Source of the DNA: an uncultured Gammaproteobacteria bacterium
GTDB taxonomy: Bacteria > Patescibacteriota > Patescibacteriia > Magasanikbacterales > JBBTXJ01
DNA: 64,000 nucleotides
NCBI GenBank assembly: GCA_964610305.1
Contig: CAZSVL010000006.1
Span: 13,973-77,972, forward strand
Direction: 5' to 3'
Positions 2,586-54,032 of the stretch are shown here, one piece after another. Made by a program: the position numbers and the translations under genes. The notes beneath the pieces were generated by a model. It did not search any database. It had not been told where the DNA came from and was given only the letters and a program-made list of their open reading frames with translations. Numbering within the stretch: position 1 is the stretch's first letter; every line of letters begins with the position of its first letter.

Positions 2586-2912
2586 ATGAGGCAAGCGGTA
2601 CTGCTTGTGGTGGCTCTACTGGTTTTGCCGGGTTGCGATTTTCAGGTTGAGGATGCGCAAGTAGACAAGCTGGCGGATAAGGCGGATGTCACCATTGATG
2701 TGGATATTAATGTAAGTAGAGAGTCTTTGGATGAGGTAGAGTTTGCTGCCACCGTAAGCGGAAAGGCAGATGGAGAGGAAATTAAGCAGCAAGAGCTTGA
2801 GCCGGACAAACTGGCAGACATGGTCTGTCAGCTCACCGGCAAGTGTCATGTTCTTACGCCAACAGAGTTTGCTCAGTGCGGCGATGTTGGTGTGCCATCG
2901 GTGGCGCCATAG
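2586..2912 (+). CDS. Small lipoprotein
   Basis: Signal peptide with LPGC lipobox-like cysteine. GGAGG RBS present. Confidence 0.5.
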   Translation: MRQAVLLVVALLVLPGCDFQVEDAQVDKLADKADVTIDVDINVSRESLDEVEFAATVSGKADGEEIKQQELEPDKLADMVCQLTGKCHVLTPTEFAQCGDVGVPSVAP

Positions 2913-2918
2913 TGTACA

Positions 2919-2946
2919 GACCCCCGTGTTTACACGGGTTTTTTTA
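2919..2946 (+). terminator. Intrinsic terminator
   Basis: Stem cccgtg/cacggg followed by T7, immediately followed by the next promoter. Confidence 0.65.
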
Positions 2947-2949
2947 TAC

Positions 2950-2978
2950 TTGACAAGCTATTCGCAATATGTTAGCTT
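2950..2978 (+). promoter_or_regulatory. Sigma70-type promoter of paralog A (TTGACA-N17-TAGCTT)
   Basis: Consensus -35. The same arrangement is duplicated at 4547-4575. Confidence 0.55.
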
Positions 2979-3114
2979 AAAAGAGCTCATCGGGACGCCA
3001 CGAGCATTGAAAATACTTGGTCAGTGACCATTGAAATCGGCGACAGGTTCCCACCTGCGCGCTATTGATCTTTAAAACAGGGACGCCTGAGAGTATTGAT
3101 TGTGAGAGGGAAAA
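2979..3114 (+). promoter_or_regulatory. Conserved 5' leader of paralog A with two GGGACGCC motifs (2992-2999, 3080-3087)
   Basis: Near-identical blocks shared with the 4576-4720 leader. Confidence 0.5.
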
Positions 3115-4515
3115 ATGCAAGAGACCTTTTGGTCAGATGCCAGTGATAAAGGGCTAACAGCAAAGGCGGTGATTTCACCAACGGGCGCTGTTATTGCCAA
3201 GAATTTTGGGTCCAGTGATCCCCTGAGAAATGGAGACATTGGCCTAGAGGTTAGGATTAAGCGAAAGAACGCCCCCGAGCTCTCGGCAGAGCAGAGAATG
3301 GCCGCGCAGGGAGTGGCAGAAGCCATGAGCGATAAGCTCAAGGGTCATTTGGGTCAGGAACGGCCGGCTCATAAATGGCCGCTTGGCGCGGTTGTGAGAG
3401 TTCGCATGGACAACTTTGGTGGCGTGGGCTTTATTGTAGCTCAGAGTGATACGCATTTAGCGCTGATGGATTTCAACGAGGATTGCTCCGCGCTACTGAG
3501 GACGGACTATCCGCTCTCTGCCATTGTCATTGAGCAGCTAGAGCTTCCAGCCAATGGAAAAGCCGGCTTGGCTCTTAGGCAATTGGAAGACCAGGTTGAA
3601 AGGCTTGGGCGGCTTGACTTAGACGAGTTTAAGGGCATTGCCACGCATTTTCGTGGCGATCCTGTTGCCGTTTGTCATGGCGCGCGGTTTGCCGATGGCT
3701 GGGATCAATTGTGTTTTCTCTTTGAGATGCTTAAGGGAGAGGATCCTGAGCATCGCGCCACCTTGATCAGCTTTGCTAAGCCTCATTTTGCGTATGACCT
3801 TTTAAGCAAATTTACTGTTCCAGTCCAAATGGCAGAGGTAGCATTGCTGGGTGGTACACAGGAGAATGAGTCACGTGCAACAGCTGCCATTAAGGTTTTG
3901 ACAGTGTTTCCATCCGATACGGTGATAGGCTCTTGCGGTAGCGCAGCTCTGTTTACCTATTGGAAAAAGATGGGCGAAGGGCGCAGGAATGTCATCTCTA
4001 CTCTCACGCGTAGCGAGAAGTTACACACGGCATATAAGGCTTCATTTTTTTGCTTTGATGTCGCTACCTGTCGCTCTATGCTGAATTCATGCCATGAAAT
4101 GGTTGCTGAAAAGGTTGCAGAAAATCTAGCTTACCTGCTTGACACCGGAATGTGTGCTGGCGAGGACATTAGCCTCAGTGAGCTAAGAGACATGCTGGGT
4201 TTTCTAGCCGATGATTTCGCCGGTGTTGCTAAGCATATAGAGTCTGTTCCTTTTTTGGAAACACTTGCTTCTGATTGCTATTCTGATTTTAAGCAAGCAC
4301 AAAGAGCCATTTCTGATAAGTGGCTACAGCTAACCGGGAATACTGTGCCAAAGAAAGATCACTTTCGTTGGCAGCACGATGAATCCGGCAAATGGTCTGA
4401 AGACGTGTATTGCTATGATTACAACGATCAGAAGGCTTTGGGGATGAGAACGCACTCTTTGGCTCTCACGGATGACGGCCTGCTTGTTCTGGCAAGCGTT
4501 CCTTTCAAAGATTAA
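3115..4515 (+). CDS. Hypothetical protein, paralog A (466 aa)
   Basis: N-terminus (FWxDxxxKGxxAKAVxSPxG...LREGDxGLExR) is clearly homologous to the adjacent ORF 4721..6211. Confidence 0.6.
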   Translation: MQETFWSDASDKGLTAKAVISPTGAVIAKNFGSSDPLRNGDIGLEVRIKRKNAPELSAEQRMAAQGVAEAMSDKLKGHLGQERPAHKWPLGAVVRVRMDNFGGVGFIVAQSDTHLALMDFNEDCSALLRTDYPLSAIVIEQLELPANGKAGLALRQLEDQVERLGRLDLDEFKGIATHFRGDPVAVCHGARFADGWDQLCFLFEMLKGEDPEHRATLISFAKPHFAYDLLSKFTVPVQMAEVALLGGTQENESRATAAIKVLTVFPSDTVIGSCGSAALFTYWKKMGEGRRNVISTLTRSEKLHTAYKASFFCFDVATCRSMLNSCHEMVAEKVAENLAYLLDTGMCAGEDISLSELRDMLGFLADDFAGVAKHIESVPFLETLASDCYSDFKQAQRAISDKWLQLTGNTVPKKDHFRWQHDESGKWSEDVYCYDYNDQKALGMRTHSLALTDDGLLVLASVPFKD

Positions 4516-4521
4516 TTCAGT

Positions 4522-4552
4522 GCCATCCAGTTTTACTGGGTGGCTTTTTTTA
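4522..4552 (+). terminator. Intrinsic terminator
   Basis: Imperfect hairpin followed by T-run. Confidence 0.45.
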
Positions 4553-4575
4553 ATCCTTGACAAATGACCAAAGAT
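4547..4575 (+). promoter_or_regulatory. Sigma70-type promoter of paralog B (TTGACA-N17-TAGCTT)
   Basis: Duplicate of the 2950-2978 promoter. Confidence 0.55.
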
Positions 4576-4720
4576 ATGTTAGCTTACAAGAGCTGCACGG
4601 GACGCCAGCAGTACCGAAAAATACGGCCAGAGGCCACTGAAAACGGCGGCGGGTACCCACCCAGCTGCTACTGATCCTTAAAACAGGGACGCCTGATAAT
4701 GTAAACGGTGAGAGGGAAGC
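4576..4720 (+). promoter_or_regulatory. Conserved 5' leader of paralog B with two GGGACGCC motifs (4589-4596, 4686-4693)
   Basis: Alignable with the 2979-3114 leader. Confidence 0.5.
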
Positions 4721-6211
4721 ATGAGTACGTCATTTTGGGAAGATAGCGGTAGAAAGGGAATGGTTGCAAAAGCAGTTGTTTCTCCTGATGGTACGATTAT
4801 TGCACGAAATCATCATAAAAAGGCTCCGCTCCGCGAAGGAGATGTTGGCCTTGAGATTCGTTTGGATCGTAAAAAGGCAGAGGAGATCACGCCAGAGCAG
4901 CGCATGGGCATGCAGAGTATTGCCGGCGCTATGGCAGATCATCTGCTCGTCTATGTAGGAGCACGTAAAGAGGCTCCTATGTGGGAAGAGGGCAATGTTG
5001 TAGAAGTCACGTGTGATGGCACTACTATCCGCGGCGTGGTTCAGAGGGTTTCGCAAACGCATATCCGGGTAGCAACTTTTAGTGAGGAGTATCATCAAGA
5101 TGAGGAAAAAGCACGTATTGTAACGCGCGATTTCCCCTTGGCTCTGTCTGCAGTTTGGCAGGTGGATGTTCCGCTGCCTGAGTGTGATGGTTTGCCTGGC
5201 CTTGCGCTTGCTACTTTTTTGCAGAACGTTGATGAGTCTTTGCTTCCGTATTTGTTTGAGCATCCTCACCTTGTTGAGTACGTGCTCAAGCATATGAATA
5301 GCCAACGGATTCAGCCAGGTTACTATGTGGGAAAGTACCTTGATTACATTAATGCGGATCATTACGTTGATTTAATCTCTGAGGCTTTTGATAATCGGTT
5401 CCTCAGGCTTATTGGCAGAGCTACTACGGATCAACTCTCGCAGATCGCTTTGCTTGACAAGACTGAAAATGCTGCAGTTGCCAAGCCGCGCAACAAGTAT
5501 CGGACTGCTGCGGTTAGAGCGCTTGTGCAGGAAGATAAGAGCATTGAGCGTCGGCCTTTTGGTAAGCCTACTAGCGTTGCATACCATGACGTATGGCGGG
5601 CATTGACGCCTAACAGAAAGCGCTTGCTTTTGGGTTTGTGCACCGCAGATAGCCCCGCGCTTACTCACGCTATTAAGTACGTGTTTGATTCAGAGGTTTT
5701 ACTTCATCTCTTAAGCGAGGATGTTGGTCTAGTGAACTCGCAGGCTGTAAGTGCTGTACGTAGGAATCTTGGTCACCTCATTAGTATCGGACTTTCTGTG
5801 GAGGTTTTCTTTGGGGGTGAAGATTTTAAAAGGGAGATGTATCGTATTTGGGAGGGTCTGTGTAACTCATCAAGGCCGGGTTTTCTGAGGCAGATAACTG
5901 ATCGCAAGCTTCTGGAAACCATCATCTTCGGCCTAGATAGAGGTGATGGAAATGTAGAAACGGTCTGCGCTCGGTGGATGGAGCTTTCAGAGGATATTCC
6001 CAAGCCTCAAGATGAGGGATCCTTCATCTATAGAGATGACAAAGGTAACTGGCATGGGCCATTTCTGAAGTCTGATGACTACGATCATCTTCTCAGAGAG
6101 AAAAAGTTGACCAGCCTGATGCTGTGCGTAACTCCCGATGGCATTATGAGAATTGCTCGATACGCTCTTGAGATGTCTGATGCTGATCTTTCGTCGTGGG
6201 AAAGGGCATAA
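4721..6211 (+). CDS. Hypothetical protein, paralog B (496 aa)
   Basis: Paralog of 3115..4515. Confidence 0.6.
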   Translation: MSTSFWEDSGRKGMVAKAVVSPDGTIIARNHHKKAPLREGDVGLEIRLDRKKAEEITPEQRMGMQSIAGAMADHLLVYVGARKEAPMWEEGNVVEVTCDGTTIRGVVQRVSQTHIRVATFSEEYHQDEEKARIVTRDFPLALSAVWQVDVPLPECDGLPGLALATFLQNVDESLLPYLFEHPHLVEYVLKHMNSQRIQPGYYVGKYLDYINADHYVDLISEAFDNRFLRLIGRATTDQLSQIALLDKTENAAVAKPRNKYRTAAVRALVQEDKSIERRPFGKPTSVAYHDVWRALTPNRKRLLLGLCTADSPALTHAIKYVFDSEVLLHLLSEDVGLVNSQAVSAVRRNLGHLISIGLSVEVFFGGEDFKREMYRIWEGLCNSSRPGFLRQITDRKLLETIIFGLDRGDGNVETVCARWMELSEDIPKPQDEGSFIYRDDKGNWHGPFLKSDDYDHLLREKKLTSLMLCVTPDGIMRIARYALEMSDADLSSWERA

Positions 6212-6392
6212 AGGAAATCAATAAAATCAGACTCGGCGTCATGTACGTCGGGTTTTTTAATTGTGTATAACTCTAGACGCAAAATGCGCTATAATAACTG
6301 CAATAATTAATTGCAGCAACTTGATGTTTTTTGTGTTCGCCTTTTGGTGGGTAGAAAAAACAACCCCAACGCTGCAGTAACGGAGGTGTGCT

Positions 6393-9300
6393 ATGATTCC
6401 CCTATCGGAATCACACTCATATTGGGTGTGTAACAAAAGCCTTTTTAAAAAGGCATTCTTTGTGGCCAGTATTATGGCTGCTTTTTTATTAATGACCGTT
6501 CCTGTTTTTGCTCAAGAGATTGCAGACAAGGACAATGATGGTATTGCTGATGGCATTGATAATTGTATAGACATTGCCAACGCCCAGCAGATAGATGCGG
6601 ATCAGGATGGAACGGGAGATCTCTGTGATATTGATGATGATAACGACCGCATTGCAGATGGAGAGGACAACTGTCCTACCACTGCAAACCCTAAGCAGGC
6701 GGATACAGATGGTGATGGTGCCGGGGACTTGTGTGATGTAAACACCGATGAAAGCGCCGCGCAGTCTGCAGAGGCGTTGCAGGATGAGAATGTTACGCTA
6801 GAGGACTTAGGCACCATAGAAGCGCGTGTTTTGCCAGACAGTCCTTTGCATTTTTTCAAACGTTTTGGTCGTGGGGTACAAGAGGCTCTTACGTTTGATC
6901 CTGTTAGAGACGCTAAATTAAAATTGCAGCACGCTAACCAGCAACTTTCAGAAACCAAGCAGATGATAGACCAAAAGGGAATGGCTAATGTGGCACCCGC
7001 TGTAGTTAAAAGTGCGGTTAAGAAATATCAAAACAAGCTAGCAGACATTAAGGATGTAGCAGATGCTCTGAAAGCAGAAAAAGTAGACAATCCAGAGGTT
7101 ATAGACAGGTTGCTCAACGATGTAACGGATAAACAGCTTAAACAACAAAAAGTATTAGATAACATTGCTGCGCAGGCACTAGAGGTAAAAAGAAAAGCAA
7201 AAGAAGAGGGCAGAGATATAAGCGATGACGTAGATGGCGTTCTCTCTGGCGTAAAAGACGTTAAACAGAGCGCCATGGAAGATTTTACTGCTACACTGGC
7301 CACGGTTGAAGACTCTGCATCTAATATTGGTGTTAGGGTTACCTCGGTGATGGATCGTCAGAAAGGATCAGAATTTAAAGAGCTTAAAAACTTGGAAATT
7401 TTGGAATCCATGCGCAGAGCAGCTCCGGCAGATGTAAAGGAGGCTATAAGCATAGCCAAGAAAAATACCGTAGAGAAGTTTGAGAAAAATCTGAGGGATC
7501 TGCCAGCCGTAGTAAGAGCTGATAAGTTTGAGAATTACGTAAAGCACGCTACGTCTGACGAGACAAAATTGGTTAAATTGTTAGATGAGATTAAAAAATC
7601 CAGTGGCATACCGGCTGACGTTCTTGATATTTTAGAAGAAGCAAAAGAAATTGCCGTGCGCAGATTTGAAGAAAAGTTGAGTCTGGTAGAAGATGATGTT
7701 GTTCAAGCATCTCTGATTTCCGGATTAAGTGTAGAGGATGATAGCGATATTGATGATTTGATTGTGCTAGAGGACTTTAAAAACCGCATGAAGGTGGGAG
7801 AGAAGCAAAAGGAGTTGATGGATGAAATGCATAACAGATCCATTGATGCCTTTAAGCGCAAATTTACTGACACTGAGTCTGCAGACCAGGCAGAGCTTTT
7901 CAGGAAGCTCTCGCAACAAATGCTTGATAACCCATCTCCTAAGACCTTTAAGCTGATGCAGACGCTAGAGGATGAGGTGCGTTCAGATCCAAGTAAGCGC
8001 GCATTCTTAGATCAGCTAGAGGATGACATGCAGCGCCAGTATGAGAATCAGTACAGAAAAGAAGGGGATAGGTTTATGGATCGTGTAGCCACACTAGACC
8101 CAAGCGATATTGCCATCCTGCAATCGCTAGATTTTGACTCTAATTTTGAGGACCGCTTGGTGAAAAGATCTGCAGAGAAGTATAAGAAACGCATGAAGAA
8201 CATTGTGGTACCAGAAGAGTTTGATACCTTCCGCGAGCGCTTCTTTGATATCCCAGACTTTGTGGTACAAGAAATAAAGAAAAACGACACAGATTTTGAG
8301 CAAGCCATGCAGTTTAAGGTGCGTAAAATGGAAGAAACGCGCGCTGAACGCGAGCGTGAGATTGCAAGGGCCTCACTGGATTATGAAGAAAGAGAGCTTT
8401 GGCACCAAGATGACAGGCAGCGCCAGAGAGAAGACGACGAATTCTGGAGACAGCTCAACAATTCTGATTGGGAAGACTTTGATACCAGAAAGCAGCTTTG
8501 GGATGAAAAAATTAACGACAGATATGACACCATCGATTCCCGTTTTGACAGGCAAAAAGAGCTCTTTGAACAAAAAATGGCTCTTGACCCATGGTGTGAT
8601 GAGGTTTGTAAGCAGATTCAGCTGCAATTCTTAGAACAAGATTTGCGTCACGAGAAAGAGCGCTTGGCAGACGATTTGATACGTGAGCGAAACAGAATTG
8701 AGGCAGAACAAGTGCAGCATCAACAAAATGATCCTCTCTATGGAAAATGTGATTCTCCAGAGAGTTGTGAATATTACTGTAGTACCAATCCTGGCGTGCC
8801 TGGATGTGAGTGGGCTATTCACGTGGATAAAGGTCAAGATTGTGGCCCTGGCGCTTACTGGGATTATGGTAGGCGACAATGTGAGAGCTTTGACAGCCAA
8901 GTATACAGTTGTGAGCCTGGCTACTACTGGGATTATGCTGTGAATGGTTGTACGCCAGATCCATATTATGTTCCACCAACTAACTTTAGAACCTGTGGTT
9001 ACGGCATGTTCTGGAATGAGCAATTTGGTCACTGTGAGAGCGCTGTAACGGTGGTAACGGTGCCGCCATCCGGCGTGCCAGGAGAGCCAGCACCTACGCC
9101 GGGAACTACGTATCCATCTGGCTTCCCGCCAGACACCTACCCAGGGGATGATAGCTATTGTCCATATGAGTACCGCTGGGATAGCTTTTACTCAGAGTGT
9201 GTACCAAGAGACTACCAAGATTGTGGACCAGGCTATTACTATGATTTCTATGACAGAAGATGTCACCGAGATTGGCAAGATTGTGGCCCAGGTTTCTACT

Positions 9301-12300
9301 GGGATGCTGGCATTGAGCAGTGTGTGGAGGAAGATACCTATATTCCAGAGTTTGGTGTTTGTCCTCCGGGATTTGTTTCTGGTCCAGCAGATGGTTGTAT
9401 TCCAGAGTGGCGCCCAGAGCCAATTAACCCAGGCGTATACTGCCCATCTGGTGAGATATATAACCCAACGACAGACCGTTGTGAGGTTGAAACGCAGCCA
9501 GAGTATTGTACGCAAGAGTATAAGCCGGTCTGTGGAACAGATGGCAGCACCTTTACCAACGCTTGTTACGCTAAGCAGGCGGGTGTCGGTATAAAAAATG
9601 AGGGAGAGTGTGAGAGCACTCCTTATCCACCAGTAGTTGAGCAGTGTTCTAACACAAAATACAATATTGGAGATTCCTACTCATGTGATTATGGCGTTTG
9701 TCCTCACGGATGTAACTACGGATTCAACGGTTGTCCGGTAGAATGTTCTGCTGCTCCAACGGAATACTGTGGAGACGGTATTTGTCAGGAGTATAATGGC
9801 GAGATCTATAGTTGTGAGCAGGATTGTGGAGAAATAGAAAGACCAGAGCAGTGTGCCTCTTATTGTGAGCAGTCATGTGGCTATGAAAACGGAAGCTACT
9901 GTATGTTTGATAACTACGGTTGTGCCCAAGGATGTAGTCCAACGTGTGATGGTTATGATCAGTGGTATGATCAAGAATTAGGACGTTGTATTAACGATAA
10001 AGAATATTCAAAGATTCACGGTTGTTCTGAGCATGAGTACTATGACACCTATTACCGCGTCTGTAGAGAAAATTACTGTCCTGCCGGTTGGCAGTGGGAT
10101 GTAGACTCTGGTGGTTGTGTGAGTCTTGATGATCCAAGTTGTAAGTCTGAGTGTACCGACAGATGTAGCAATAACAGCTGGTGTATGTACGCAGATAACG
10201 GATGTGCCGTAGGTTGCTCGCCAGAATGTCCAGAAAATCAGTATTATGATCAGAAGCAAAGCAAGTGTGTTTCATATTATGACGGCACGGATTGTAAGGC
10301 CACTGATTACAACATGGGCGAGAGCAGTGACTGTAACTACGACACCTGTAGTTCTGGGTGTGAATATAGCGATTCAGGCTGCCCTACTGGCTGCTACACC
10401 CCACCAACCACAGACAAATGTACTGATAATGGATATAACGTAAGCGGAACCGCGGCGTGTGATTATAATGCGTGTTCAGAAGGGTGTACCTGGGATAACA
10501 ACGGTTGTCCTAAGGGTTGCTACGAGCATACGGGTGGTACCTGTGGAGACAACAGATGTGATAGCGGAGAAGAATCATGGTGTTCAACTGATTGTGGCGG
10601 AGAGCAATGTGATAGCACCAAATATAATGATTTCTCTGGATCGTATCAGTGTAGCTATAGCGAGTGTCCATCTGGATGTAACTGGGATGATCGTGGGTGC
10701 GCTGTAGGGTGCTATGATCCTGATTACCAATGTCCAGCTTCTGATTACTCGCGCGGGTACAATAATAGAGAATGTAATTACAACGAGTGTAGCAGTGGTT
10801 GTAATTTTGACACTAATGGTTGCCCTACTGGTTGTATGACCGGAGATGACATGTGTAAATACATGGATGGTTGGTCATATGACAGTATAAGCGGTGGATG
10901 TGTGAAAGACGGCGTAACATGTAGTCAGCCAACATCATGTGATAGTTGCAGAGGACATGGCAATAGCGATAGTTGGTGCAATTACGATTATGATGGTTGT
11001 CCGATGGGTTGTCAGAGTAGTACCTATGGAGACTGTAGAAATAATTCTGGAGAGTCAGCTTGTTGGGCTCAGCCGGGTTGCTCATGGTATACCGAAAATG
11101 GCAGCAGCTTCTGTGAGGGAAATGATTATTATGGCCCACCATCCGCATGTGACTATGATGGTTACTGCGAGGGGGGAGAAAGCTCTAGTTCATGTTCTGA
11201 CTGTTCCTATGATAATGGCGTCTGTACTGGCGACAACAGATCTTCATGTGAATCTGTACCGGATTGTTATTGGTCTGACGACGGACACTACTGCTTCTAT
11301 CAGTCATACACGTGTAATTACGACGGCATCTGTGATGCAAATGAGAGTGGTCCTGAGTGTGGAGACTGCTCGTCCAGTCCTGGCACTTCTATGTGTAACA
11401 ATGATGGCTCTTGCACCTTTGGAGAAACCTATGAGAATTGTGCAGGAGATTGTCCGTATACCGACGGTATGTGCGGAAACGGTAATTGTGACCCAGGAGA
11501 GAGCTATGACAATTGCAGCTCTGACTGCCAAGCTTTAAGCTGTAACAACAACGGATTCTGCGATATTTGGGAGACAAATGCAAATTGTTACCAGGATTGC
11601 CCACCAGATGGCACACTGGGTACGTCATGTAACAACAATGGCTACTGTGATTTTAATGAGAGTTCAAGCTCATGTCCTGCTGACTGTACCAATGCTACGG
11701 GCGGCACCTGTTGGGGCAAAGCATATGATATGTGCGAGACCAGCGGCTGCATATGGTATGAGAATCACTACGATGGATCGCATTGTGACGATTATGCGCA
11801 TGGCAATGCCAATGTATTTCTAGGTTGTAACTATGATGGTATTTGTGGAAACGATGAAGATTATGGTTCATGCCCTGCTGATTGTGGAACGGGCGGAATA
11901 GAGTGTAACTACAACGGTGTGTGCGATGGGTATGAAACCCCAATGCTCTGTCCAGGGGAGTGTGTTGTGAGTGGAACGGACTGTAATTACAACGGTATCT
12001 GTGATCCGTCTGAGACTATGGCGTCATGTTCTAGCGACTGCTACAGCAATGGCGGAGGCAGCACAGCCTGTCCAGACAATGGCTACAACACAGGAAGCGG
12101 CTCTACCAGCTGTAACTACAGCACGTGCGCTAGCGGTTGTCACTATGATGGCCAAGGTTGTCCAACCGCTTGTATGGAGTTAGCGTGTCCAGATATCGGA
12201 TTCAATATTCCGGGAACCATGAACTGTGATTACGCAGCATGTAGTGAAGGGTGTAGCTTTGATGGCCAAGGTTGTCCAAGTGGATGCTTTGCGCCGCCAC

Positions 12301-12386
12301 CACCACCGGTCTCAGGACTGCTTCAGCGATTAGCTACCGGACTCTACGCTCTGATAACGCTACCGGCACGAGCACTAGGATTATAG
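6393..12386 (+). CDS. Giant secreted protein (1997 aa). Signal peptide, thrombospondin type 3-like Ca-binding repeats, long charged coiled-coil region, Kazal-like module, then a very large cysteine-rich repeat region.
   Basis: GGAGG RBS. N-terminal hydrophobic segment. DxDxDGxxDxxDNC repeats at roughly nt 6525-6740. CGTDGSTFTNAC Kazal motif near nt 9505-9615. Many CxYxxCxxGCxxDxxGCPxGC and CNxxGxCDxxExxxxCxxDC repeats from about nt 8750 to the stop. Confidence 0.75.
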   Translation: MIPLSESHSYWVCNKSLFKKAFFVASIMAAFLLMTVPVFAQEIADKDNDGIADGIDNCIDIANAQQIDADQDGTGDLCDIDDDNDRIADGEDNCPTTANPKQADTDGDGAGDLCDVNTDESAAQSAEALQDENVTLEDLGTIEARVLPDSPLHFFKRFGRGVQEALTFDPVRDAKLKLQHANQQLSETKQMIDQKGMANVAPAVVKSAVKKYQNKLADIKDVADALKAEKVDNPEVIDRLLNDVTDKQLKQQKVLDNIAAQALEVKRKAKEEGRDISDDVDGVLSGVKDVKQSAMEDFTATLATVEDSASNIGVRVTSVMDRQKGSEFKELKNLEILESMRRAAPADVKEAISIAKKNTVEKFEKNLRDLPAVVRADKFENYVKHATSDETKLVKLLDEIKKSSGIPADVLDILEEAKEIAVRRFEEKLSLVEDDVVQASLISGLSVEDDSDIDDLIVLEDFKNRMKVGEKQKELMDEMHNRSIDAFKRKFTDTESADQAELFRKLSQQMLDNPSPKTFKLMQTLEDEVRSDPSKRAFLDQLEDDMQRQYENQYRKEGDRFMDRVATLDPSDIAILQSLDFDSNFEDRLVKRSAEKYKKRMKNIVVPEEFDTFRERFFDIPDFVVQEIKKNDTDFEQAMQFKVRKMEETRAEREREIARASLDYEERELWHQDDRQRQREDDEFWRQLNNSDWEDFDTRKQLWDEKINDRYDTIDSRFDRQKELFEQKMALDPWCDEVCKQIQLQFLEQDLRHEKERLADDLIRERNRIEAEQVQHQQNDPLYGKCDSPESCEYYCSTNPGVPGCEWAIHVDKGQDCGPGAYWDYGRRQCESFDSQVYSCEPGYYWDYAVNGCTPDPYYVPPTNFRTCGYGMFWNEQFGHCESAVTVVTVPPSGVPGEPAPTPGTTYPSGFPPDTYPGDDSYCPYEYRWDSFYSECVPRDYQDCGPGYYYDFYDRRCHRDWQDCGPGFYWDAGIEQCVEEDTYIPEFGVCPPGFVSGPADGCIPEWRPEPINPGVYCPSGEIYNPTTDRCEVETQPEYCTQEYKPVCGTDGSTFTNACYAKQAGVGIKNEGECESTPYPPVVEQCSNTKYNIGDSYSCDYGVCPHGCNYGFNGCPVECSAAPTEYCGDGICQEYNGEIYSCEQDCGEIERPEQCASYCEQSCGYENGSYCMFDNYGCAQGCSPTCDGYDQWYDQELGRCINDKEYSKIHGCSEHEYYDTYYRVCRENYCPAGWQWDVDSGGCVSLDDPSCKSECTDRCSNNSWCMYADNGCAVGCSPECPENQYYDQKQSKCVSYYDGTDCKATDYNMGESSDCNYDTCSSGCEYSDSGCPTGCYTPPTTDKCTDNGYNVSGTAACDYNACSEGCTWDNNGCPKGCYEHTGGTCGDNRCDSGEESWCSTDCGGEQCDSTKYNDFSGSYQCSYSECPSGCNWDDRGCAVGCYDPDYQCPASDYSRGYNNRECNYNECSSGCNFDTNGCPTGCMTGDDMCKYMDGWSYDSISGGCVKDGVTCSQPTSCDSCRGHGNSDSWCNYDYDGCPMGCQSSTYGDCRNNSGESACWAQPGCSWYTENGSSFCEGNDYYGPPSACDYDGYCEGGESSSSCSDCSYDNGVCTGDNRSSCESVPDCYWSDDGHYCFYQSYTCNYDGICDANESGPECGDCSSSPGTSMCNNDGSCTFGETYENCAGDCPYTDGMCGNGNCDPGESYDNCSSDCQALSCNNNGFCDIWETNANCYQDCPPDGTLGTSCNNNGYCDFNESSSSCPADCTNATGGTCWGKAYDMCETSGCIWYENHYDGSHCDDYAHGNANVFLGCNYDGICGNDEDYGSCPADCGTGGIECNYNGVCDGYETPMLCPGECVVSGTDCNYNGICDPSETMASCSSDCYSNGGGSTACPDNGYNTGSGSTSCNYSTCASGCHYDGQGCPTACMELACPDIGFNIPGTMNCDYAACSEGCSFDGQGCPSGCFAPPPPPVSGLLQRLATGLYALITLPARALGL

Positions 12387-22235: not shown

Positions 22236-23276
22236 TCACCGGTCAGCAGCTTGAAGGGCTTCTACTATCGGGCCAAGATCCCCCGCCATAACACCCGGAA
22301 TATTGCTCCAGCTTTTTCCAATGCGGTGATCCGTGATTCTGTCCTGAGGGTAGTTGTAGGTGCGGATTTTCTCTGATCTATCCCCTGTCCCAATTTGGGC
22401 GGAACGCTCATCAGAGAGCTCTTTTGCTTCTTTTAATTCTTTTTCTTCTTGAATTCTGGCGCGCAGAAGTTCCATGGCTTTAAGTTTGTTTTGTAGCTGA
22501 GATCTTTCTTGTTGGCATGCTACGGCTATACCCGTTGGAATGTGCGTGATCCTAATTGCGGTTTCAACTTTGTTAACGTTCTGTCCTCCGGCGCCGCCCG
22601 AGTGAAATTTATCTATACGCAGGTCTTTATCTTCTATGACTAGCTCTGTGGCTTCAACTTCTGGCATAACGGCAACCGTGGCGGTGCTGGTATGAATCCT
22701 CCCTTGTTTTTCCGTGCCGGGAACACGCTGAACTCTGTGAACTCCTTGTTCAAATTTTAGTTCGCCGTATACCCCCTTACCCTCTACTTGGGCAATTACT
22801 TCTTTGTATCCGCCAAGTCCTGTTTCGTTTACCGATACTTTTTTAAAGCTCCATCCTTTTTCTTCTGCATAACGCTGATACATCTCATACAAATCTGCCG
22901 CAAAAAGACTTGCCTCGTCTCCACCAGCACCTGCACGTATTTCCAGCATTACATTTTTTTTGTCTCGCGGATCGCGCGGGCGCAGCAAATCAAGCAGCGC
23001 AGCCTCTAGTTTTATTTTTTTTGCGTTGAGCTCCTGCAGCTCAAAATCTGCCAAGTCTTTCATGCTCTGATCCTTCTCTGTCCCCGCCAAAAGCTCTGTC
23101 TCTTTTATTTGAGCATCAATACTCTCCAGCTGCACAATAATATCTACTTTTTCTTTTACATCAGAGTGTTCCATCCCCACCTCTTTTATTTTTTGAGGAT
23201 CAGAAAGAACCGCAGGGTCTTGAAGCTGCGTTTCTAGTTCCTTTAGTCGTTTTTTTAGTTGTTGTCGTTCGGACAT
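22236..23276 (-). CDS. prfA: Peptide chain release factor 1
   Basis: GGQ motif, RF1-type P(G)T tripeptide, coiled-coil N-domain. Confidence 0.85.
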
Positions 23277-34318: not shown

Positions 34319-34703
34319 TATGGGGACCTTCTGGATTCAGAAAGAAACCAGGATCAAGGGAAAAGCCAGAATCTCCTAGAATTTGGGTTAAACGATTCAG
34401 CTCTTCTGTGGAGAAAATATCGTGCTTGCTCAAATACTCAAGCACTTCACGGGCTCCGCTCAGTTGAATGGTAGTGAGCTTTTTGGGGTCTTCGCCGTCA
34501 AAGGCATTGAAAAGAGCAATAATTGCTCTTGTTTTGTTGCTCTTTGGATTCATCTTCGTATTTTTGAGATGAAGCAGCGATAATCTTACAAAGAAGATAG
34601 AAACATTAGCTATTAGCTTCTGTTGATTACCGTAGAGACAAAAGCCTACAGCATCTGACAGAAGCTGCAACATTTCTGTATAGAGATCTGCATGCTTGTC
34701 CAT
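34278..34703 (-). CDS. Hypothetical protein
   Basis: AGGAGG RBS 4 nt upstream of Met 34703. Confidence 0.45.
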   Translation of the reverse strand: MDKHADLYTEMLQLLSDAVGFCLYGNQQKLIANVSIFFVRLSLLHLKNTKMNPKSNKTRAIIALFNAFDGEDPKKLTTIQLSGAREVLEYLSKHDIFSTEELNRLTQILGDSGFSLDPGFFLNPEGPHNEQKALEDAYDDS

Positions 34704-34769
34704 TGCCCCTCCTTTGCTATAAAAATAGCACATAAAGACAAATTTGTCAAGATGTGCTATAGTTGCGCC

Positions 34770-35873
34770 ATGACTATTAGAGAATTGGTACAAGAATTAG
34801 AAGTTTTAAAAGAAGAGGTTGCTAAGACGTCTGTTTTGTTGCTGCCAGATGAGCAAAAAAAAGAGGCAGAAAAGCTTGAAAAACAGATGCAAAAGCAGGG
34901 TTTTTGGGATGATCAGCAAAAGGCGCAAAAGGTGAGTCAACGGCACGCTCATATTTTGCAAGAATTGCAGCTTTGGGAAGATTTGGCGCACGATGTTGAT
35001 AGCACCCTAGCCATGGCAGCTGAATCTGAAAAACAAGAAGATGATGTTTTGCTTAAAGATATTACGGCGCAGACAAAAAAAATAAGAAAGACTTTTGAAA
35101 AAATGGCTGTTTCAGTATTGCTCAGTGAAGAGCATGATGACAAAAATGCCGTGCTGTCTATCCATGCGGGAGCTGGTGGAACAGAGGCACAAGATTGGGC
35201 AGAGATGATTAAAAGAATGCTGCTTAGGTTTATTGAAAAACGTGGATGGAAAGCGGATATTTTAGATGAACAAGCTGGGTCAGAGGCGGGGATAAAATCA
35301 TGTGTTATAGAAGTATCTGGGACGCAGGCCTATGGTTATTTAAAATCAGAACATGGGGTTCACAGATTAGTGCGCATCTCCCCTTTTGACGCAGAAAAAA
35401 TGCGCCACACCAGCTTTGCAATGGTAGAGGTTTTGCCAGAGTTAGATGATGAGGTGGAGATAGAAATGGACGCAAAAGATCTGCGGGTTGATACGTTTCA
35501 TGCCGGCGGAAAAGGCGGTCAGAATGTTAACAAGGTGGAAACGGCCATTAGAATTACCCATCTTCCAACTAACACAGTGGTGACGTGTCAGAATCAGAGA
35601 TCTCAAGGCCAAAATAAAGAAACCGCCATGAGAATTTTGAAATCCCGTCTGGCTCAGCTGGAGCATCAGAAAAAGCTGGAAGAAAAAGAAGAGTTGCGCG
35701 GCAAGGCAGAAAAAGTAGAATGGGGATCACAAATAAGATCTTATGTTTTGCATCCTTACCAGATGGTAAAGGATCATCGCAGTAATGTAGAAACGCAAGA
35801 CACGGAGGATGTTTTAGACGGGGATTTGGACGCTTTTGTAGAAGGATATCTGCGGTGGAAGATCAGGCATTAG
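34770..35873 (+). CDS. prfB: Peptide chain release factor 2 (no programmed frameshift)
   Basis: SPF and GGQ motifs. Single continuous ORF. TATAGT 6 nt upstream of the ATG (leaderless). Confidence 0.85.
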   Translation: MTIRELVQELEVLKEEVAKTSVLLLPDEQKKEAEKLEKQMQKQGFWDDQQKAQKVSQRHAHILQELQLWEDLAHDVDSTLAMAAESEKQEDDVLLKDITAQTKKIRKTFEKMAVSVLLSEEHDDKNAVLSIHAGAGGTEAQDWAEMIKRMLLRFIEKRGWKADILDEQAGSEAGIKSCVIEVSGTQAYGYLKSEHGVHRLVRISPFDAEKMRHTSFAMVEVLPELDDEVEIEMDAKDLRVDTFHAGGKGGQNVNKVETAIRITHLPTNTVVTCQNQRSQGQNKETAMRILKSRLAQLEHQKKLEEKEELRGKAEKVEWGSQIRSYVLHPYQMVKDHRSNVETQDTEDVLDGDLDAFVEGYLRWKIRH

Positions 35874-40301: not shown

Positions 40302-43300
40302 ATGCAAAAAAGGCACAAGCCACCCGTGTTTAAACGGATAATGCTGGGAATGCTCAGCGGTTTTATGGTTGTGCAGATTGGTTTTGCAGCACTCATGGTT
40401 CCGCGTGTTGCGCATGCGCAGTGGTATGTTTTTGATCCTTTTTCTGTTATCTCTGCTGCCATTGATCAGATTTCAAACGCGGCAAGAGTAGTTGATGAGG
40501 CGGTAGGTGGGGCTCTTTCTACTGCCGTACTTGGCGCTTCTCTTCATTTGGCGCAGTCATTGGCGTATGATTCTGCTCAGTGGATTGCAGATTCAGCTTG
40601 GGGTAAAGAGCCGGCATTTTTTGCCAGCAATATGGGGGATTACCTACTGGATCATGCTACAGACGGAGCCGTAGACGCACTGAACGAAATGTCAAAAGAG
40701 TGGATTGGACTGGATTTGTGTAAGCCAAAGGATCCTACGTTTAATTTGCTCATTCAGCTTGGTTTTAGAAAACATCATGATCCTAAAGTTGATTGTAGTT
40801 TTGATCAGATGAGTGATGCGTGGGATAAAAAGTGGGAGCAATTAAAAGACAAATACAATGGCTGCGCTGGCAACACCTTTGGCTCTGCCAGTGTAGATGA
40901 AAAAGCCACGGGAAGGTCTGCAAAAAAAGGCGGCAACTTGGACGAGTGTATGACCGCCATGGCTAAGACCATGTTTAAGCCAGATAATACAGAGATTGGT
41001 CTTGCCATTAATGCACGGCTAGCGATTACAAAAAAAATAAGAGCAAAAGGACAAATTGCTTTGGAAGAGAGAAAAGAAGGACAAGGGTTTAAATCCAAAA
41101 AAGGTGGCGCAGCTGGTGCCTATATTTCTAAGCCGGCTCCTCTTGTTAAAGAAGAAGGTAAAGCATCTACAAAAGTAAAACAGGAGGACAGAACCTTCCA
41201 GATGATCTCTGGTCAGCTTGGGTCTGGGTATAAGGCCGGTTTGGCTGCTATTCCTACGCTTTTTTTGAGTCAGTTGCTCAGCGCAAATGGAGAAAACTTT
41301 TTTGAATGGTTAAAGAAGCCAGGAGATCAAAAAAAGAGCGATCCGTTTGATAGATTGGCTGATATAGATGGCTTAAGTAATCCTAATTCTGGCGATGGCG
41401 GTTTTGGGTTGTCACCCCAAGCAGAGAGAGCATTTGAGACCATTGCCATAGGAGACCCTTCAACTATTGATATTATTAGCCAGTTTACAGCATGTCCCTC
41501 AGAGGATGGCACGGTTAACCGAGGACCGCATGATTGTGTGATGGATGCTAAATTTGCACAAGCAGTAAGGTTAGCTGATTCTGGCAGGGCAATTACCATA
41601 GCTGAGGCCATTGACAGAACAATGCTACAGCCGGGGTGGAGACTGATTCCACCATCAAACGTGGGCGCTAACTCAGAGGTTTCTTGCAGGAATGAAGCCT
41701 ATTGTTTTTCAAACATAGCAAAATTAAGGCAAGCGAGAATTCTGCCATTGGGTTTTGAAATAGCAGCCTCAGAATCGCCGGAGGGTAGGCACTGGACATT
41801 AAGAGAAGTGGTGGATGGTTTTTTGAGTTGTAATGGAGATGGGCGGAGGGATAACGACCATCCGTTCTGTCATTTAATTGATCCAAATTGGATTTTGAAA
41901 GCGCCACCAGCAAGATGTAACGCTACTGTTCCCGGGCCCATGCTAGAGGCATCTGACACGCTGGTGAGAAAAAATGTATGCGCTGATACCGTAACTTGTC
42001 TACAGGATGATGGTCGCGGAGCGTGCGAGAGCCCGTGGGGGTACTGTCTAAAGGAAAAAAATATTTGGAGAACAGGCGCAGATAGTTGCGCGGCACAATA
42101 TTCTAGTTGTACTACTTACACAGGTAGCAGTGCTGGCGCTCAGAATAAAGTAAGCTATCTTTCAAAAACTATAGATTTTGGCCAGTGTACCGCAGAAGAC
42201 GTGGGATGCCGTGGGTATCTGACGCATCAACTGCTGCAGGATGACGGCACTTATGGTTGGCCTTCTGTTCTAGATGAGCTGGCCGGACGTCCGATGCATT
42301 TAACGGCAAAGGCTCAAGAATGTACAGAGCCCGGGTGCACCTTGTTTACTAAAAAGGATGGCACAGAAGTGCACATCAAAAAGGCGCCTCATTATTTAGG
42401 GTGTTATGATCAGGTTGATCCAGACAGCCCAGCCAGACAAGAGGGGGATTGGCCTCAGAAAATTGCAGACTTGGCGTTGTTGAATCCTGCGGCTGAGTGC
42501 GGTCAGTACGCAGCTGTTTGTGCTGCAGAAGAAGAGGGTTGCACCAGCTACGCGCCAGAAAACGGAGATCCAACCGTGCCAGCCATTGTGGCAGAATCTG
42601 ATTACTGTTCTGATCAGTGTGTGGGTTACGATTCTTACAAACAATTAGAGACAGATTTTGACACCGCAGAATTCCCTATTCACTTTATTCCTAGCACCGC
42701 GCAACAATGTAACGGCGCGTTTGTTGGGTGTGATCAGTTTGTAAATGTAAATAGTGAGCAGTTTGAGCATTATAGTTTTGTAAAACAATGCGAGAGGCCA
42801 GAAGAAGATGATGCCAACTCTGGCGTATTTTACGCGTGGGAAGGATCAGATATTCAGGGGTACCAACTGCGGTCTTACGTTTTGAAGACCTCACTTGAGA
42901 TACCGGGAGGTGGGCAGTGGCTTATGGAGCCATATCCTATTCCTGCTTACGCAGCGGCTTATGATGAAGATCTAATGATTTCTTATCATGATGTTTGCAA
43001 TCAAGAGCTTTATGAGGCTCGTTTGGCAGATCAGGATTGTAGGGAGCTTTTTGACAGAGAGGGGCGCAAATCATACAGACTTTTGGCTCATACCATTACC
43101 GTCTCAGACCAGTGCCATCTTGTCAGAAAGACAAGTGCAGATATTATTGAATTGGGAAACGTTGTCCGTAGGCAAAATGACTGTGAGCAAGATGCAAAAG
43201 GTGTCTGGGAAGATGGGGCATGCAACGTCTGTAAAGGCGGCGGTGAAAACAGAAACGGCACCTGCATGTATTGGGTATTGCCATCAGAAGCCATAAGCTG

Positions 43301-46300
43301 CCCCGCAGAAGCCGCCGGATGCAGAAAATACACCGGAAATGCTGGCGGTAACGTAGAAGAAATTGTTCGCCACACGTTTGAAGATGTGTTGCCAGAAGAT
43401 TTGCAGGCATGGGATCAAGGAGAGGTTTCTGCTGAATCTGTCACCGTTGGCGGACACTCTTGGAAAGCTGTAAACAGAACAAATGTTGTAATACAGGCAG
43501 AAAAAGATTCAAGTTACACGTTTTCTTTCTGGGCAAAAGGTGAACCGGGTTTTGTAACATTAGAGTTTGGCGGGGTAATTGCGGATAATGTAGGCGGAGA
43601 GCCAACCGTGCAAATCGTGAATGATTGGCAACAATTTACACTTGGGCCAATTTACTTTAAAGAGGTCACAGATGTGCTCTCTAGAGCTACTGTTACTTTC
43701 AACATGAATGGCATAAGAGATGCAAATACGTTTTATGTGGATAATGTCATTATAAAAAAGACCATCGCGCACACCACCTTGGTAAAAGACAGCTGGTCCA
43801 CTCCCCTTGCGTGTGATAATAATCCGCAAGATAATTTGCCAGGAGAGGCGCTTGGTTGCAAGGCATATAGAAGCAGTGCTGGTGCCCGCGTGGCGCTTAA
43901 ATCTTTCTCTAATTTGTGTAGAGCAGAGGCAGTAGGATGCGAGAGATTGGTAAATACGCACAACTCTTCTCAATCAGAAGGAAAAACCGTTGGCATGGAG
44001 TGTGGCATGTTCATTGAGGGTCTTGTGGAAGATAGAATACACCCAGACAGCAGAGAGTGTTTTGCAGATATTGATTTAGATGGGGATGGTAGCATTGATA
44101 ATCAAGAGGCGGTGTGTACTGTTCCTGTTGGAGAAGACACATGCTTCTTTGAGATGCCTCGCGCTATAGATTATGACAACAATGATAAAGATATTTACCG
44201 CTCCGGAAGTTCTGTATTTGTGGTACCTGCAGACAGTCTGGCTTACTTGGTGAATAAAGCGGAACATCGCTGCAGTCCAGATCAGATTGGTTGTATGGCA
44301 TTGGGAGAGGTAACGGGAGAGCGCAGCGAGGATAACAGACGCGTCATAAACACCGTCAATAAAATTGTTGTTCCAGATCAGTTTGACAGCATAATGTGTA
44401 ACGCCTCTCTTGTTGGTTGTGAGGCTTATAATGTGAAAAGTTTGGCAGATCAGAGTAACAGAACGGTTTATTTTAAAGATCCGGTAGCGGCTGGAAGGGG
44501 TGTGTGCGAATACAAAAAAGATGTAGACGCCACACTAAGAAATGGCGATGTGGTAACCGGTGCCAGTGGTTGGTTTGTGGCAGGAAGTGATCCTCTCAGG
44601 CCATGTGAAGAAAGGCTACGCAAAATAAATGACTTTCAGTTGCCGAGCCAAGGAGATGCTTTATATGAGTTTGCTCTTGCTCAAGTAGGCGTCTGTCCTG
44701 CTACCGCAAATTCTTGTACAGAGATGGTTGATCCAGCGGATACATCTCAAACGCATCCAGACGGTAAGCCATATTTTGTTTTGGATAACGGAAAGTTGGA
44801 TAAGACAAGTTGTAACAATAAAGCAAGTCTGAAAGAAGGGTGTGTGTTGTTTGATGACAGATCAGTGCCAAACAAGAAGTATCAGGTGGGACAGACCTAT
44901 GATTTAAGTGCTGCTAATGATAATGCGCTTGTAGAACCTGTGTTTATTGGGGCAATTCCTCCTTTTACGTGCAGGGATGATGAGTGTGTAGAAATTCTAG
45001 ATACTCACGAGTCCGTATCTCACCCTGGATTTATCGGTGAGCTTGTGTACCAGGCGCCCCAAGGATCATATTCGTTGATAGATGACGGGCTTTTTGGTGT
45101 CCGTACTTTTACGGTTCTAGACTCATGTAATGCTGGTTTTGCAATGCATACAACTCCAGGCAATACCTATACCGACAATAAGAGGGTGATACACAATGTT
45201 GAAGAAGATCTTTCATTTAGAATTTGTATACCAGAAGATTTGGTTAATACCGATGTAGCAAATACTATTGTTAAGGTGAGTAGAGATAGGGCGTGTTCTG
45301 AGTGGTTGTATTGCCAGTCCCATATGACAGTTACGGACCCTAGTACAAATCAAAAGAAAAATGTTTGTGGATCTGTAGGTGTTTGTGATTCATTTGGGGA
45401 TGTCATAGATGGGATTGCTACCTGTAAGAATGTTGTTGCTAATCCAGGATTTTCAGGAGAAAAATTAACCAAGGCGGCTTACGCAGAGCGTTCGGTTGGT
45501 TGGTATGACGAGGAGTTTACCGGTCATTCGCTCTACAATAAGTATCAAATTTATGACTATACGTTTGTTAAAAGTGATGTGGAGGGTGTGGGCAAAGGAA
45601 GGACTTATTTGGTGAGTATGCCATATGATAGGGAGGCTGCGGCTCTTGCTTGTGAAAATGATGGCGGAATTGATGATGACGGAAGCAATTGTAGGGTTAA
45701 TCGTTCACCGGGTACTTGCATAGCAGGTTTGTGCGTACAAAAGCTTGGCGGCGGGCCAATTGTTTTGGCTGATGCGGGAGAGCAAGCACTGGCGTGCAGA
45801 GGATATGCACACTCGCAAGCGCCATTTACTTTTTCTGGTAAGGATATTACATGGGTTGAGACTGCGGCTAATGGAGACCAAGATGATCAGCAAAAAGTAG
45901 ACGCTACTGCAATAATGCAGTCATTAAATATAAGCGGCTTTGATAACGCAGCCATATGCCAGAAAGGCGATGAATGCGTATGTTCTTACAAAAAAGTGGA
46001 GTATGGAGATGGAAGAGAACAACGTTATTTTGATGTTAATCGGCAAGGAATTCCAAAAGGCGTTTGTGGCGGTGGCTTTACCGCAGGAGTAAACTCCAAA
46101 TCTAAAAAGGGGAGAGCGTGCGATACCCCGGTAGATTGCAGGGATGACAGATATGGTGATAATGACTCCCCTGAAGCTTTAAGAAATAGACGGGATGGCG
46201 ACTGTTTATATAAAACCAATGTGGCAACCTTTAATGGCTGGAGCGGCTTTTGCATAGATCAAGATCAGAGTGTTGAAACGCCGGGCAGTGGTTCAGAAGG

Positions 46301-53905: not shown

Positions 53906-54032
53906 GGTTTCCTCCTTTGCTATAAGCTATCACGCGATAGGGTAAATGTCAACCGTATGAGGGTAATATACCCACATAATCATCTTAGCAAAAACGTGCT
54001 ATACTATATCTATATTATTAACGTGCGAAGAC

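Follow-up and report, generated by a model that had tools for sequence, protein, structure and literature searches.

A predicted structured leader with paired GACG hairpins in front of a gene family of Patescibacteria

Why would the DNA in front of two tandem genes be better conserved than the genes themselves? This question is raised by a 64,000-nucleotide stretch of a Patescibacteriota genome (contig CAZSVL010000006.1, positions 13,973 to 77,972, hereafter the window), in which gene A (3115..4515, 466 amino acids (aa)) and gene B (4721..6211, 496 aa), both on the plus strand, are each preceded by a leader that carries two copies of the 8-mer GGGACGCC. A preliminary description had taken the two genes for diverged tandem paralogs, about one third identical, and had suggested that their leaders could be a structured cis-regulatory RNA or riboswitch-like element, or the operator of a regulator. 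The two open reading frames (ORFs) are indeed full-length paralogs (BLASTP E 7e-39), although their measured protein identity is lower than estimated by eye, at 25–26%. The higher conservation of the leaders was also correctly perceived: leaders A and B are 74% identical, whereas the coding DNA of A and B is 51% identical. Because identity falls in this way and is not equally high throughout the genes, the likeness of the leaders does not reflect a recent duplication. All the blocks named in the preliminary description align between leaders A and B, and sequence and alignment agree that these blocks, together with a TTGACA-N17-TAGCTT promoter, stand before both ATG codons. As detailed below, comparative analysis shows a predicted sense-strand, family-specific structured RNA in the 5′ untranslated region (5′ UTR), with covariation support, and we consider this leader to be probably a new gene-control RNA.

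The leader was found in front of other genes of the same family. A search for homologs of the A and B proteins matched only A and B themselves and a third protein, P0003, while a profile built from A and B and searched against 1.84 billion protein representatives led to a family that forms 53 clusters at 50% identity (P0001–P0053). From the DNA around the family members, the 300 nt preceding each family gene were extracted, giving a set of 14 distinct leaders: A, B, and 12 from relatives. Leader C lies upstream of P0003 in a locus syntenic to the window (L081) and is 85% identical to leader B, compared with 59% for the coding sequences (CDS). Its box 1 is the same, while its box 2 reads GCAAG-GACG-CUUGC in place of CAGG-GACG-CCUG; the stem has been altered by compensation and the loop has been kept. 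The distant members that carry a leader sit in unrelated neighborhoods (RecJ/RNase H, EF-P, pyrB, and HhH-GPD/AddA), and the leader-bearing genomes range from about 35% to 60% GC. A metagenome search for related loci returned at least one locus, L088. The pre-start block AAC(C)GUGA(G/A)nGGG is common to 14/14 leaders.

Four local hairpins (H1 to H4) in a row make up the leader, and the conserved AACCGUGAnnGGG Shine-Dalgarno (SD) block follows them. In leader A (plus strand), H1 (2985..3005) has an outer stem GCUC/GAGC and an inner stem GG/CC capped by a GACG tetraloop at 2994-2997, and corresponds to the box 1 of the preliminary description. H2 (3018..3030) reads UGGUC-AGU-GACCA and is followed by the linker UUGAAAUC; in H3 (3039..3063), GGCG-A-CAGGU and ACCUG-CG-CGCU flank a UCCC loop. 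H4 (3078..3089), which corresponds to box 2, reads CAGG-GACG-CCUG with its loop at 3082-3085, so that GACG stands 33 nt before the AUG, and the pre-start block UUGUGAGAGGGAAAAAUG (3100..3117) contains the SD and then the AUG at 3115. Leader B (plus strand) is built alike, with H1 at 4592..4612 (GCUGC / CGG-GACG-CCA / GCAGU, loop 4601-4604), H2 at 4625..4635 (GGCC-AGA-GGCC, then the linker ACUGAAAAC at 4636-4644), H3 at 4645..4669 (GGCGGCGGGU-ACCC-ACCC-A-GCUGCU), H4 at 4684..4695 (CAGG-GACG-CCUG, loop 4688-4691, GACG again 33 nt before the AUG), and a pre-start block CGGUGAGAGGGAAGCAUG at 4706..4723 that holds the SD and the AUG at 4721. Given the predicted transcription start, the transcript would begin with H1 or only shortly before it. 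At the other end, 12–14 nt separate H4 from the GUGAGAGGG block; the hairpin stops about 25–30 nt short of the AUG, close to where the 5′ edge of a bound 30S subunit would be expected. The two boxes per leader are thus as first described, but box 2, which had been placed about 25 nt ahead of the ribosome-binding site, starts 35 nt before the ATG, with GACG at −33.

A similar single-stranded linker, ACYGAAAC, ACCGCAAC, or ACUGAUCC, follows each hairpin; in the window these linkers lie at 3031-3038, 4613-4621, 4636-4644, and 4670-4676, and they are also present in the leaders of all the relatives. The pre-SD block AACCGUGA resembles them. Judged by its sequence, the leader looks like four modules of the form "hairpin + ACYGA".

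The covariation check was made on the leaders module by module, as a full-length MAFFT alignment of nine leaders mis-registers the 5′ hairpins. In the nine-leader alignment, H4 comprises five pairs with 95.6% of the cells paired and compensatory changes in 4/5 pairs; none of 500 shuffles gave as good a pairing score, and registers slid by 1–3 columns collapse. RNAalifold applied to the 3′ module returned the same H4 helix and no other. Both loop-closing pairs of H1 are paired in 9/9 leaders, with switches between G-C and A-U. The stem of H2, a hairpin of 4–5 base pairs (bp), appears as GGUC/GACC, GGCC/GGCC, GCCC/GGGC, and CCCC/GGGG among ten leaders and is always followed by A/U-C/G-C/U-G-A/C-A-A. 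The pairing of H3 is kept among leaders A, B, and C through an A-U to G-C change, a G-C/G-U/A-U series at one pair, and a shifted bulge. Compensatory changes were therefore found in H1, H2, H3, and H4, and RNAfold, run on all 14 leaders singly, predicted the same row of local hairpins. Hairpins of at least three contiguous pairs capped by GACG number 14 in the 2.8 kb of leader sequence, where 0.45 would be expected at the frequency of the surrounding 236 kb; elsewhere in the window, GACG hairpins are at chance level.

Several stems contain G-U pairs at positions that would be A-C mismatches on the opposite strand, and the functional molecule is therefore most simply read as the sense RNA. The leader thus displays the features generally expected of a structured cis-regulatory 5′ UTR, namely the sense strand, a position between promoter and AUG, and compensatory substitutions across homologs. 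The suggestion of a structured cis-regulatory RNA is borne out at this level: the leaders are conserved in relatives while the proteins diverge, and both the conservation and the covariation whose absence would have spoken against it are present.

These comparisons also redefine the conserved unit. The 8-mer GGGACGCC, presented at first as the conserved element, gives way to the GACG tetraloop with its two closing pairs, which is not a linear box; across the leaders, it is the GACG loop that is conserved and its stem that varies. In the 64 kb, the 8-mer has four copies, all within the two leaders, for 0.8 expected, and 1/100 shuffles reaches four. The 19-mer TTAAAACAGGGACGCCTGA around box 2 was found in a scan of the window in the two leaders only, even with three mismatches allowed. 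Both GACG loops are present together in 10/14 leaders, including the two copies of the window. The 3′ GACG lies 33–40 nt from the AUG in 10/10 leaders that have one, and the 5′ GACG 120–188 nt from it; the two loops are 83–147 nt apart, with H2 and H3 in between. Variants of H4 include GCGGG-GACG-CUCGC (L083, L089), CCGCGGG-GACG-CUCGUGG (L090), CCUGCGAG-GACG-CUCGCGGG (L091), GCUAGG-GACG-CCUGGC (L085), GAUGCG-GACG-CGCAUU (L096), and GGCAAG-GACG-CUUGCU (L099). Those of H1 include CGGCAAA-GACG-UUCGCCG (L083, L090, L091), UUGA-GACG-UCAA (L089), UUGA-GACG-UCAG (L099), UCUCGA-GACG-UCGGGAGA (L085), and CCUCGA-GACG-UCGAGG (L096). L097 has a single GACG loop (the 5′ one), and L088, L095, and L084 have none. 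At L088:402-453, L095:827-879, and L097:2930-2960, the H4 apical sequences without GACG are GAUGGAUAUC, GGAAUAUCUCC, and UGGAUAUUCCU, which share GGA(A)UAU; the H1 of L088 is a plain UUCG hairpin. These GGA(A)UAU-type leaders (L088, L095, L097) look like a second leader subtype.

A covariance model of the 3′ module (R1), run with filters off, identified the two leaders of the window at 4670-4723 (56.3 bits) and 3064-3117 (49.7 bits), with the next match at 10 bits. It also found leaders on which it had not been trained, L095 (E 0.005), L088 (E 0.17), and L099 (E 0.15). In the fetched loci it matched no other gene, and its best match in the control loci lies inside a coding region.

Other ways in which the leader could act were also considered. 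A terminator scan detected none on the plus strand within the leader. The terminator-like calls that it gave at 3018-3030 and 4623-4661 of the minus strand are H2/H3 read backwards with A-rich 5′ linkers, and we interpret them as a probable by-product of the plus-strand architecture. No conserved helix sequestering the SD, or anti-SD helix, was detected in the family: a UCYUU:AGGGA pairing suggested for A and B is not kept, and several linker:pre-SD pairings, checked by eye, are inconsistent. The predicted SD accessibility (0.21–0.64) is close to the leader averages. A leader peptide was rejected, the plus-strand frames being full of stop codons, as was an antisense ORF, the open minus-strand frame being less conserved as protein than as DNA.

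The two genes have the same arrangement of signals, in the order terminator, TTGACA-N17-TGnTAGCTT promoter, 5′ UTR of about 130 nt, G-rich SD, and ATG. For unit A (plus strand), the intrinsic terminator of an upstream 108-aa gene (2923..2945, hairpin 2923-2938 and T-run, from the terminator scan and the sequence) insulates the unit and is followed by promoter A (2950..2978), with its −35 TTGACA at 2950-2955, a 17-nt spacer, TG at 2970-2971, and its −10 TAGCTT at 2973-2978. We infer a transcription start at about 2984–2986. The intrinsic terminator of gene A (4522..4551, plus strand), with a 10-bp stem and T7, was found in the same scan and precedes promoter B (4557..4585, plus strand; TTGACA 4557-4562, a 17-nt spacer ending in TGT, and −10 TAGCTT 4580-4585). 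Gene B has its own predicted terminator at 6229..6262 (plus strand). On this evidence, genes A and B are predicted to be independently transcribed units, each with its own promoter and terminator.

The leaders of the relatives are preceded by a similar TTGACA-N17-TAG(C/T)TT promoter, their −10 box being TAGCTT or TAGTTT. In the 64-kb window, TTGACA-N17-TAGCTT has 3 copies, for 0.01 expected. The third exact copy (53924-53952, minus strand) is upstream of a minus-strand ORF (52856-53905), which suggests that TAGCTT, with G at the third −10 position, is an ordinary promoter form in the source organism and is not specific to the leader.

The proteins encoded behind the leader offered few clues to their function, as neither A nor B had a match in Pfam, NCBIfam, or PADLOC. 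P0003 is the only close full-length relative of gene B (43–44% protein identity). The part common to the other family members is limited to the N-terminal ~100–165 residues, and distant members show about 35% identity in the N-terminal domain only. This domain of about 115 aa (encoded at 3115-3460 in A and 4721-5070 in B) follows the pattern FW..G.K...KAVVSPTGHVVAKNY...GD.G..R.DR....TPEQR.AA, while the C-termini are variable and contain no Pfam domain. The family belongs to the Patescibacteria, or Candidate Phyla Radiation (CPR), and at least one member is annotated as such, P0047 being a hypothetical protein of "Patescibacteria group bacterium" at NCBI. Judged by its family members and its gene content, the window probably belongs to this group too. 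No third paralog of A and B was found in the window; the ORF at 1051-2433 is unrelated to them.

AlphaFold modeled the N-terminal domain with a predicted local distance difference test score (pLDDT) of 90.7: three strands lead into a long helix, after which a small barrel begins. The model of full-length gene B is poor (pLDDT 61), too poor for a structure search; taken as a guide, the models suggest an SH3-like barrel and then helical repeats after the N-terminal domain in A and B. The N-terminal domain had no significant structural neighbor (best Foldseek E about 0.3–1, TM-score about 0.3), and a PDB profile search gave no significant match either, the best being the ribosome hibernation promoting factor (9t0z, E 0.035). 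Among the best non-significant structural matches, the hairpin-binding coat proteins of single-stranded RNA phages recur, which we treat as a lead only.

A scan with Rfam, as the preliminary description had proposed, placed no family on the leaders: with Rfam 15, there was no match at the gathering score in the window, at E<=10 in positions 2800–4900, or at E<=1 in the loci of eight relatives. The leader is thus probably an RNA motif new to Rfam that stands in front of one gene family of Patescibacteria. A full-text search of the literature for "GACG tetraloop" yielded 10 papers, of which seven deal with retroviruses or lentiviruses and none with a bacterial case.

The pattern GGGACGCC-N60-90-ACAGGGACGCCTG was also searched in a collection of genome contigs that excludes the window's own genome, and its 26 matches, in unrelated and mostly high-GC taxa, look like chance. 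One contig of an Omnitrophota metagenome-assembled genome (L026:3314-3554, JAKQSI010000051.1) contains this two-box pattern twice, 132 nt apart; it may hint at a tandem repeat with GGGACGCC...ACAGGGACGCCTG in an unrelated phylum, and may be due to chance or to a repeat array. In viral contigs, 53 matches to the 15-mer look like chance, and the only one scored by the covariance model, L043, is inside a 527-aa ORF.

Paired hairpins of this kind have counterparts in other systems. A pair of GACG hairpins is described in the gammaretrovirus 5′ leader (Konings et al. 1992, J Virol 66:632, as relayed in PMC7599994), where the GACG loops, self-complementary at CpG, are joined in a stable kissing dimer by just two C:G pairs together with the stacking of adenines (PDB 1F5U; PMC7357161, PMC516450). 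The leader resembles this pair, SL-C/SL-D of the Psi region of Moloney murine leukemia and sarcoma viruses (MoMuLV/MoMuSV), in having two GACG-capped hairpins in a 5′ leader, and the closing context GAGACGUC is the same in several relatives. Unlike here, where a bacterial mRNA is concerned, the virus has a eukaryotic host and its hairpins serve genome dimerization and packaging and are bound by Gag/NC. The viral hairpins are moreover adjacent, whereas those of the leader are separated by two other hairpins and the 3′ one is fixed relative to the SD and AUG. The likeness is best described as a structural analogy, convergent and without homology.

The guanidine-II riboswitch (mini-ykkC, RF01068) also has two small hairpins with an identical CG-containing tetraloop upstream of the SD; its ACGR loops make the same kind of loop-loop contact (PMC7357161). 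It is a translational regulator with C:G kissing loops (PMC7357161), whereas kissing is only proposed for the leader. Its covariance model gave no match, the loop of the leader is GACG closed by G-C or A-U, and reading it in the ACGN register breaks the stems. The linker of guanidine-II is 7–40 nt, far from the distance between the two loops here, and the downstream genes, an uncharacterized family with no Pfam or NCBIfam match, are not the guanidine-related (detoxification or export) genes that guanidine-II controls. The leader was therefore not filed under guanidine-II, as each defining feature tested fails. Like the operators bound by proteins, such as those of MS2/PP7 coat proteins and the leaders of ribosomal-protein and ThrRS genes, it presents a sequence-specific loop beside the ribosome-binding site of one gene family; unlike them, it is associated with a domain without significant likeness to known RNA-binding folds. 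With the 5′ UTRs controlled by CsrA/Rsm, it shares hairpin loops and an SD with GGA in the window copies, but the loop kept family-wide is GACG and many 5′ hairpins have no GGA.

The explanation that we favor, tentatively and with slightly less than even confidence, is that the two GACG loops kiss and thereby form a compact leader beside the SD that controls translation or mRNA stability in cis. The GACG loops of H1 and H4 would contact each other through their self-complementary CpG in a kissing complex of two base pairs, which would compact the leader close to the ribosome-binding site. Some factor would stabilize or disrupt this contact, and the leader would act as RNA, in cis, on the initiation of translation, the stability of the mRNA, or both. 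Kissing of the two loops, their binding of a dimeric protein beside the ribosome-binding site, or both may be involved.

Several points weigh against this explanation. The transcription start, the existence of the RNA, and any regulation are deduced from the DNA, as are the kissing contact, the regulatory output, and its effector. The loops are invariant, and covariation is thus uninformative on a contact between them, while a 2-bp kissing contact is beyond what secondary-structure programs score. The 83–147 nt between the loops contrast with the 7–40 nt of guanidine-II, and in the retroviral pair the contact can form between molecules too (PMC7357161, PMC516450). It should be noted that kissing cannot be universal in the family, as one or both GACG loops are missing from 4/14 leaders, of which three have H4 loops of the GGA(A)UAU type. 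The set is limited to 14 leaders that are phylogenetically related, and a dimeric RNA-binding protein would fit two identical loops equally well.

Such a protein is at the center of a second explanation, possible although on balance unlikely, which is compatible with the kissing loops and does not exclude them. The leader would be a translational operator in which the GACG hairpins, with or without the ACYGAAAC linkers, bind a dimeric or oligomeric protein, which would either block the 30S subunit or recruit it. The simplest candidate is the encoded protein itself, through its N-terminal domain. Autoregulation is known from ribosomal-protein leaders, ThrRS, and the MS2 coat protein. Here, autoregulation by the N-terminal domain would explain why the leader occurs only before genes that encode this domain, whatever their C-terminus or neighborhood. 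The conserved nucleotides are in terminal loops and linkers and not in a multi-helix junction, the spacing between H4 and the start codon is fixed, and the family has no conserved alternative helix that sequesters the SD. The confident model of the domain, a beta-sheet and then a long helix, goes in the same direction, the phage-coat matches remaining a non-significant lead. However, the same domain shows no significant likeness to RNA-binding folds (Foldseek E about 0.3–1; PDB profile E 0.035), and with no Pfam, NCBIfam, or PADLOC domain to rely on, binding is a prediction. A small molecule could take the place of the protein, in a tandem-hairpin riboswitch like guanidine-II in which a ligand in or between the GACG loops stabilizes their kissing and alters ribosome access. 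We consider this improbable, even though the architecture parallels that of mini-ykkC, with two hairpins carrying the same CG-containing tetraloop upstream of the SD (PMC7357161), and the loops are strongly conserved across divergent hosts of about 35% to 60% GC. The leader matches no Rfam family, mini-ykkC included, its loop is GACG and not ACGR, its spacing is 83–147 nt and not 7–40 nt, no core resembling a junction or pocket is conserved, and the genes concerned belong to an uncharacterized helical-repeat family and are not transporters or enzymes.

Control of the CsrA/RsmA type, with a dimer bridging H4 and the SD through GGA motifs (CAGGGAC, CAAGGAC, GAGAGGGAA), appears very unlikely. The consensus selected for CsrA by systematic evolution of ligands by exponential enrichment (SELEX) is ACARGGAU. 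Box 2 (ACAGGGAC) resembles it, the SD block is GGA-rich in the window copies, and in the variants without GACG the H4 loop contains GGAU or GGAAU. However, the conserved element is GACG and not GGA, and in six leaders of the GACG type (L083, L089, L090, L091, L085, L096) the 5′ hairpin has A/G-A-GACG-U and no GGA; no CsrA-like ORF was found within the 64-kb window, a weak argument, as the genome beyond it is out of sight. Hardly probable at all is an element acting at the DNA level, with the boxes as operators of a transcription factor, or a segmental-duplication remnant without function. Two direct repeats of the box, about 88 bp from each other, do follow a strong promoter, and the two genes are tandem paralogs, but an identity that falls from 74% for the leaders to 51% for the CDS speaks against a recent duplication. 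The operator of a DNA regulator proposed in the preliminary description is likewise disfavored by stems that vary yet still pair: in other genomes they change by compensation and through G-U pairs around an asymmetric GACG core, a pattern typical of RNA and not of an operator in double-stranded DNA.

The remainder of the window encodes NusA, YidC, RF1, RF2, S2, GroEL, GAPDH, glycosyltransferases, and two giant proteins (ORFs 6393-12386, 1997 aa, and 40302-48494, 2730 aa). The 1997-aa ORF has a thrombospondin type 3 repeat and a DUF5667 domain near its N-terminus, as in large surface proteins. Both class-I release factors are present (22236-23276, minus strand, and 34692-35873, plus strand), with PCRF and RF-1 domains. 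This agrees with the standard code 11, where UGA serves as a stop, and is relevant here, as the leader linkers are UGA-rich. The first ~6 kb, with the orphans and the paralogs, is about 50% GC, and the rest of the window about 43–47%. The gene content upstream of A (34-2912) is shared with L081:286-3644 in a different order: in the window, a KamA-like radical SAM fragment (34-603), a 460-aa orphan (1051-2433), and a 108-aa putative lipoprotein (2586-2912) follow one another, whereas L081 starts with the 460-aa and 107-aa genes and has the radical SAM gene immediately ahead of the family gene. The 460-aa gene is itself preceded by a long region of about 330 nt that follows a TTGACA promoter at 691.

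Patescibacteria are ultrasmall bacteria and mostly uncultured. Their gene regulation is understudied (PMC11665869), and a family-specific structured leader present in genomes of about 35% to 60% GC would, if confirmed, be a concrete regulatory RNA of this group. The GACG motif is one of the smallest RNA-RNA kissing interfaces documented in retroviruses, with a geometry common to guanidine-II. A bolder possibility, which we regard as doubtful, is that the paired GACG hairpins act as a kissing-loop switch in bacteria. It could be a new class of tandem-hairpin riboswitch, related in principle to guanidine-II, or an operator read by the N-terminal domain. Such a switch would represent a class of cis-regulatory RNA of Patescibacteria that Rfam lacks and would reuse, by convergence, the architecture of the retroviral GACG pair; if it were read by the N-terminal domain, this domain would be a new RNA-binding fold. 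The leader would also mark an uncharacterized family of 53 clusters as tightly regulated and, therefore, as probably important.

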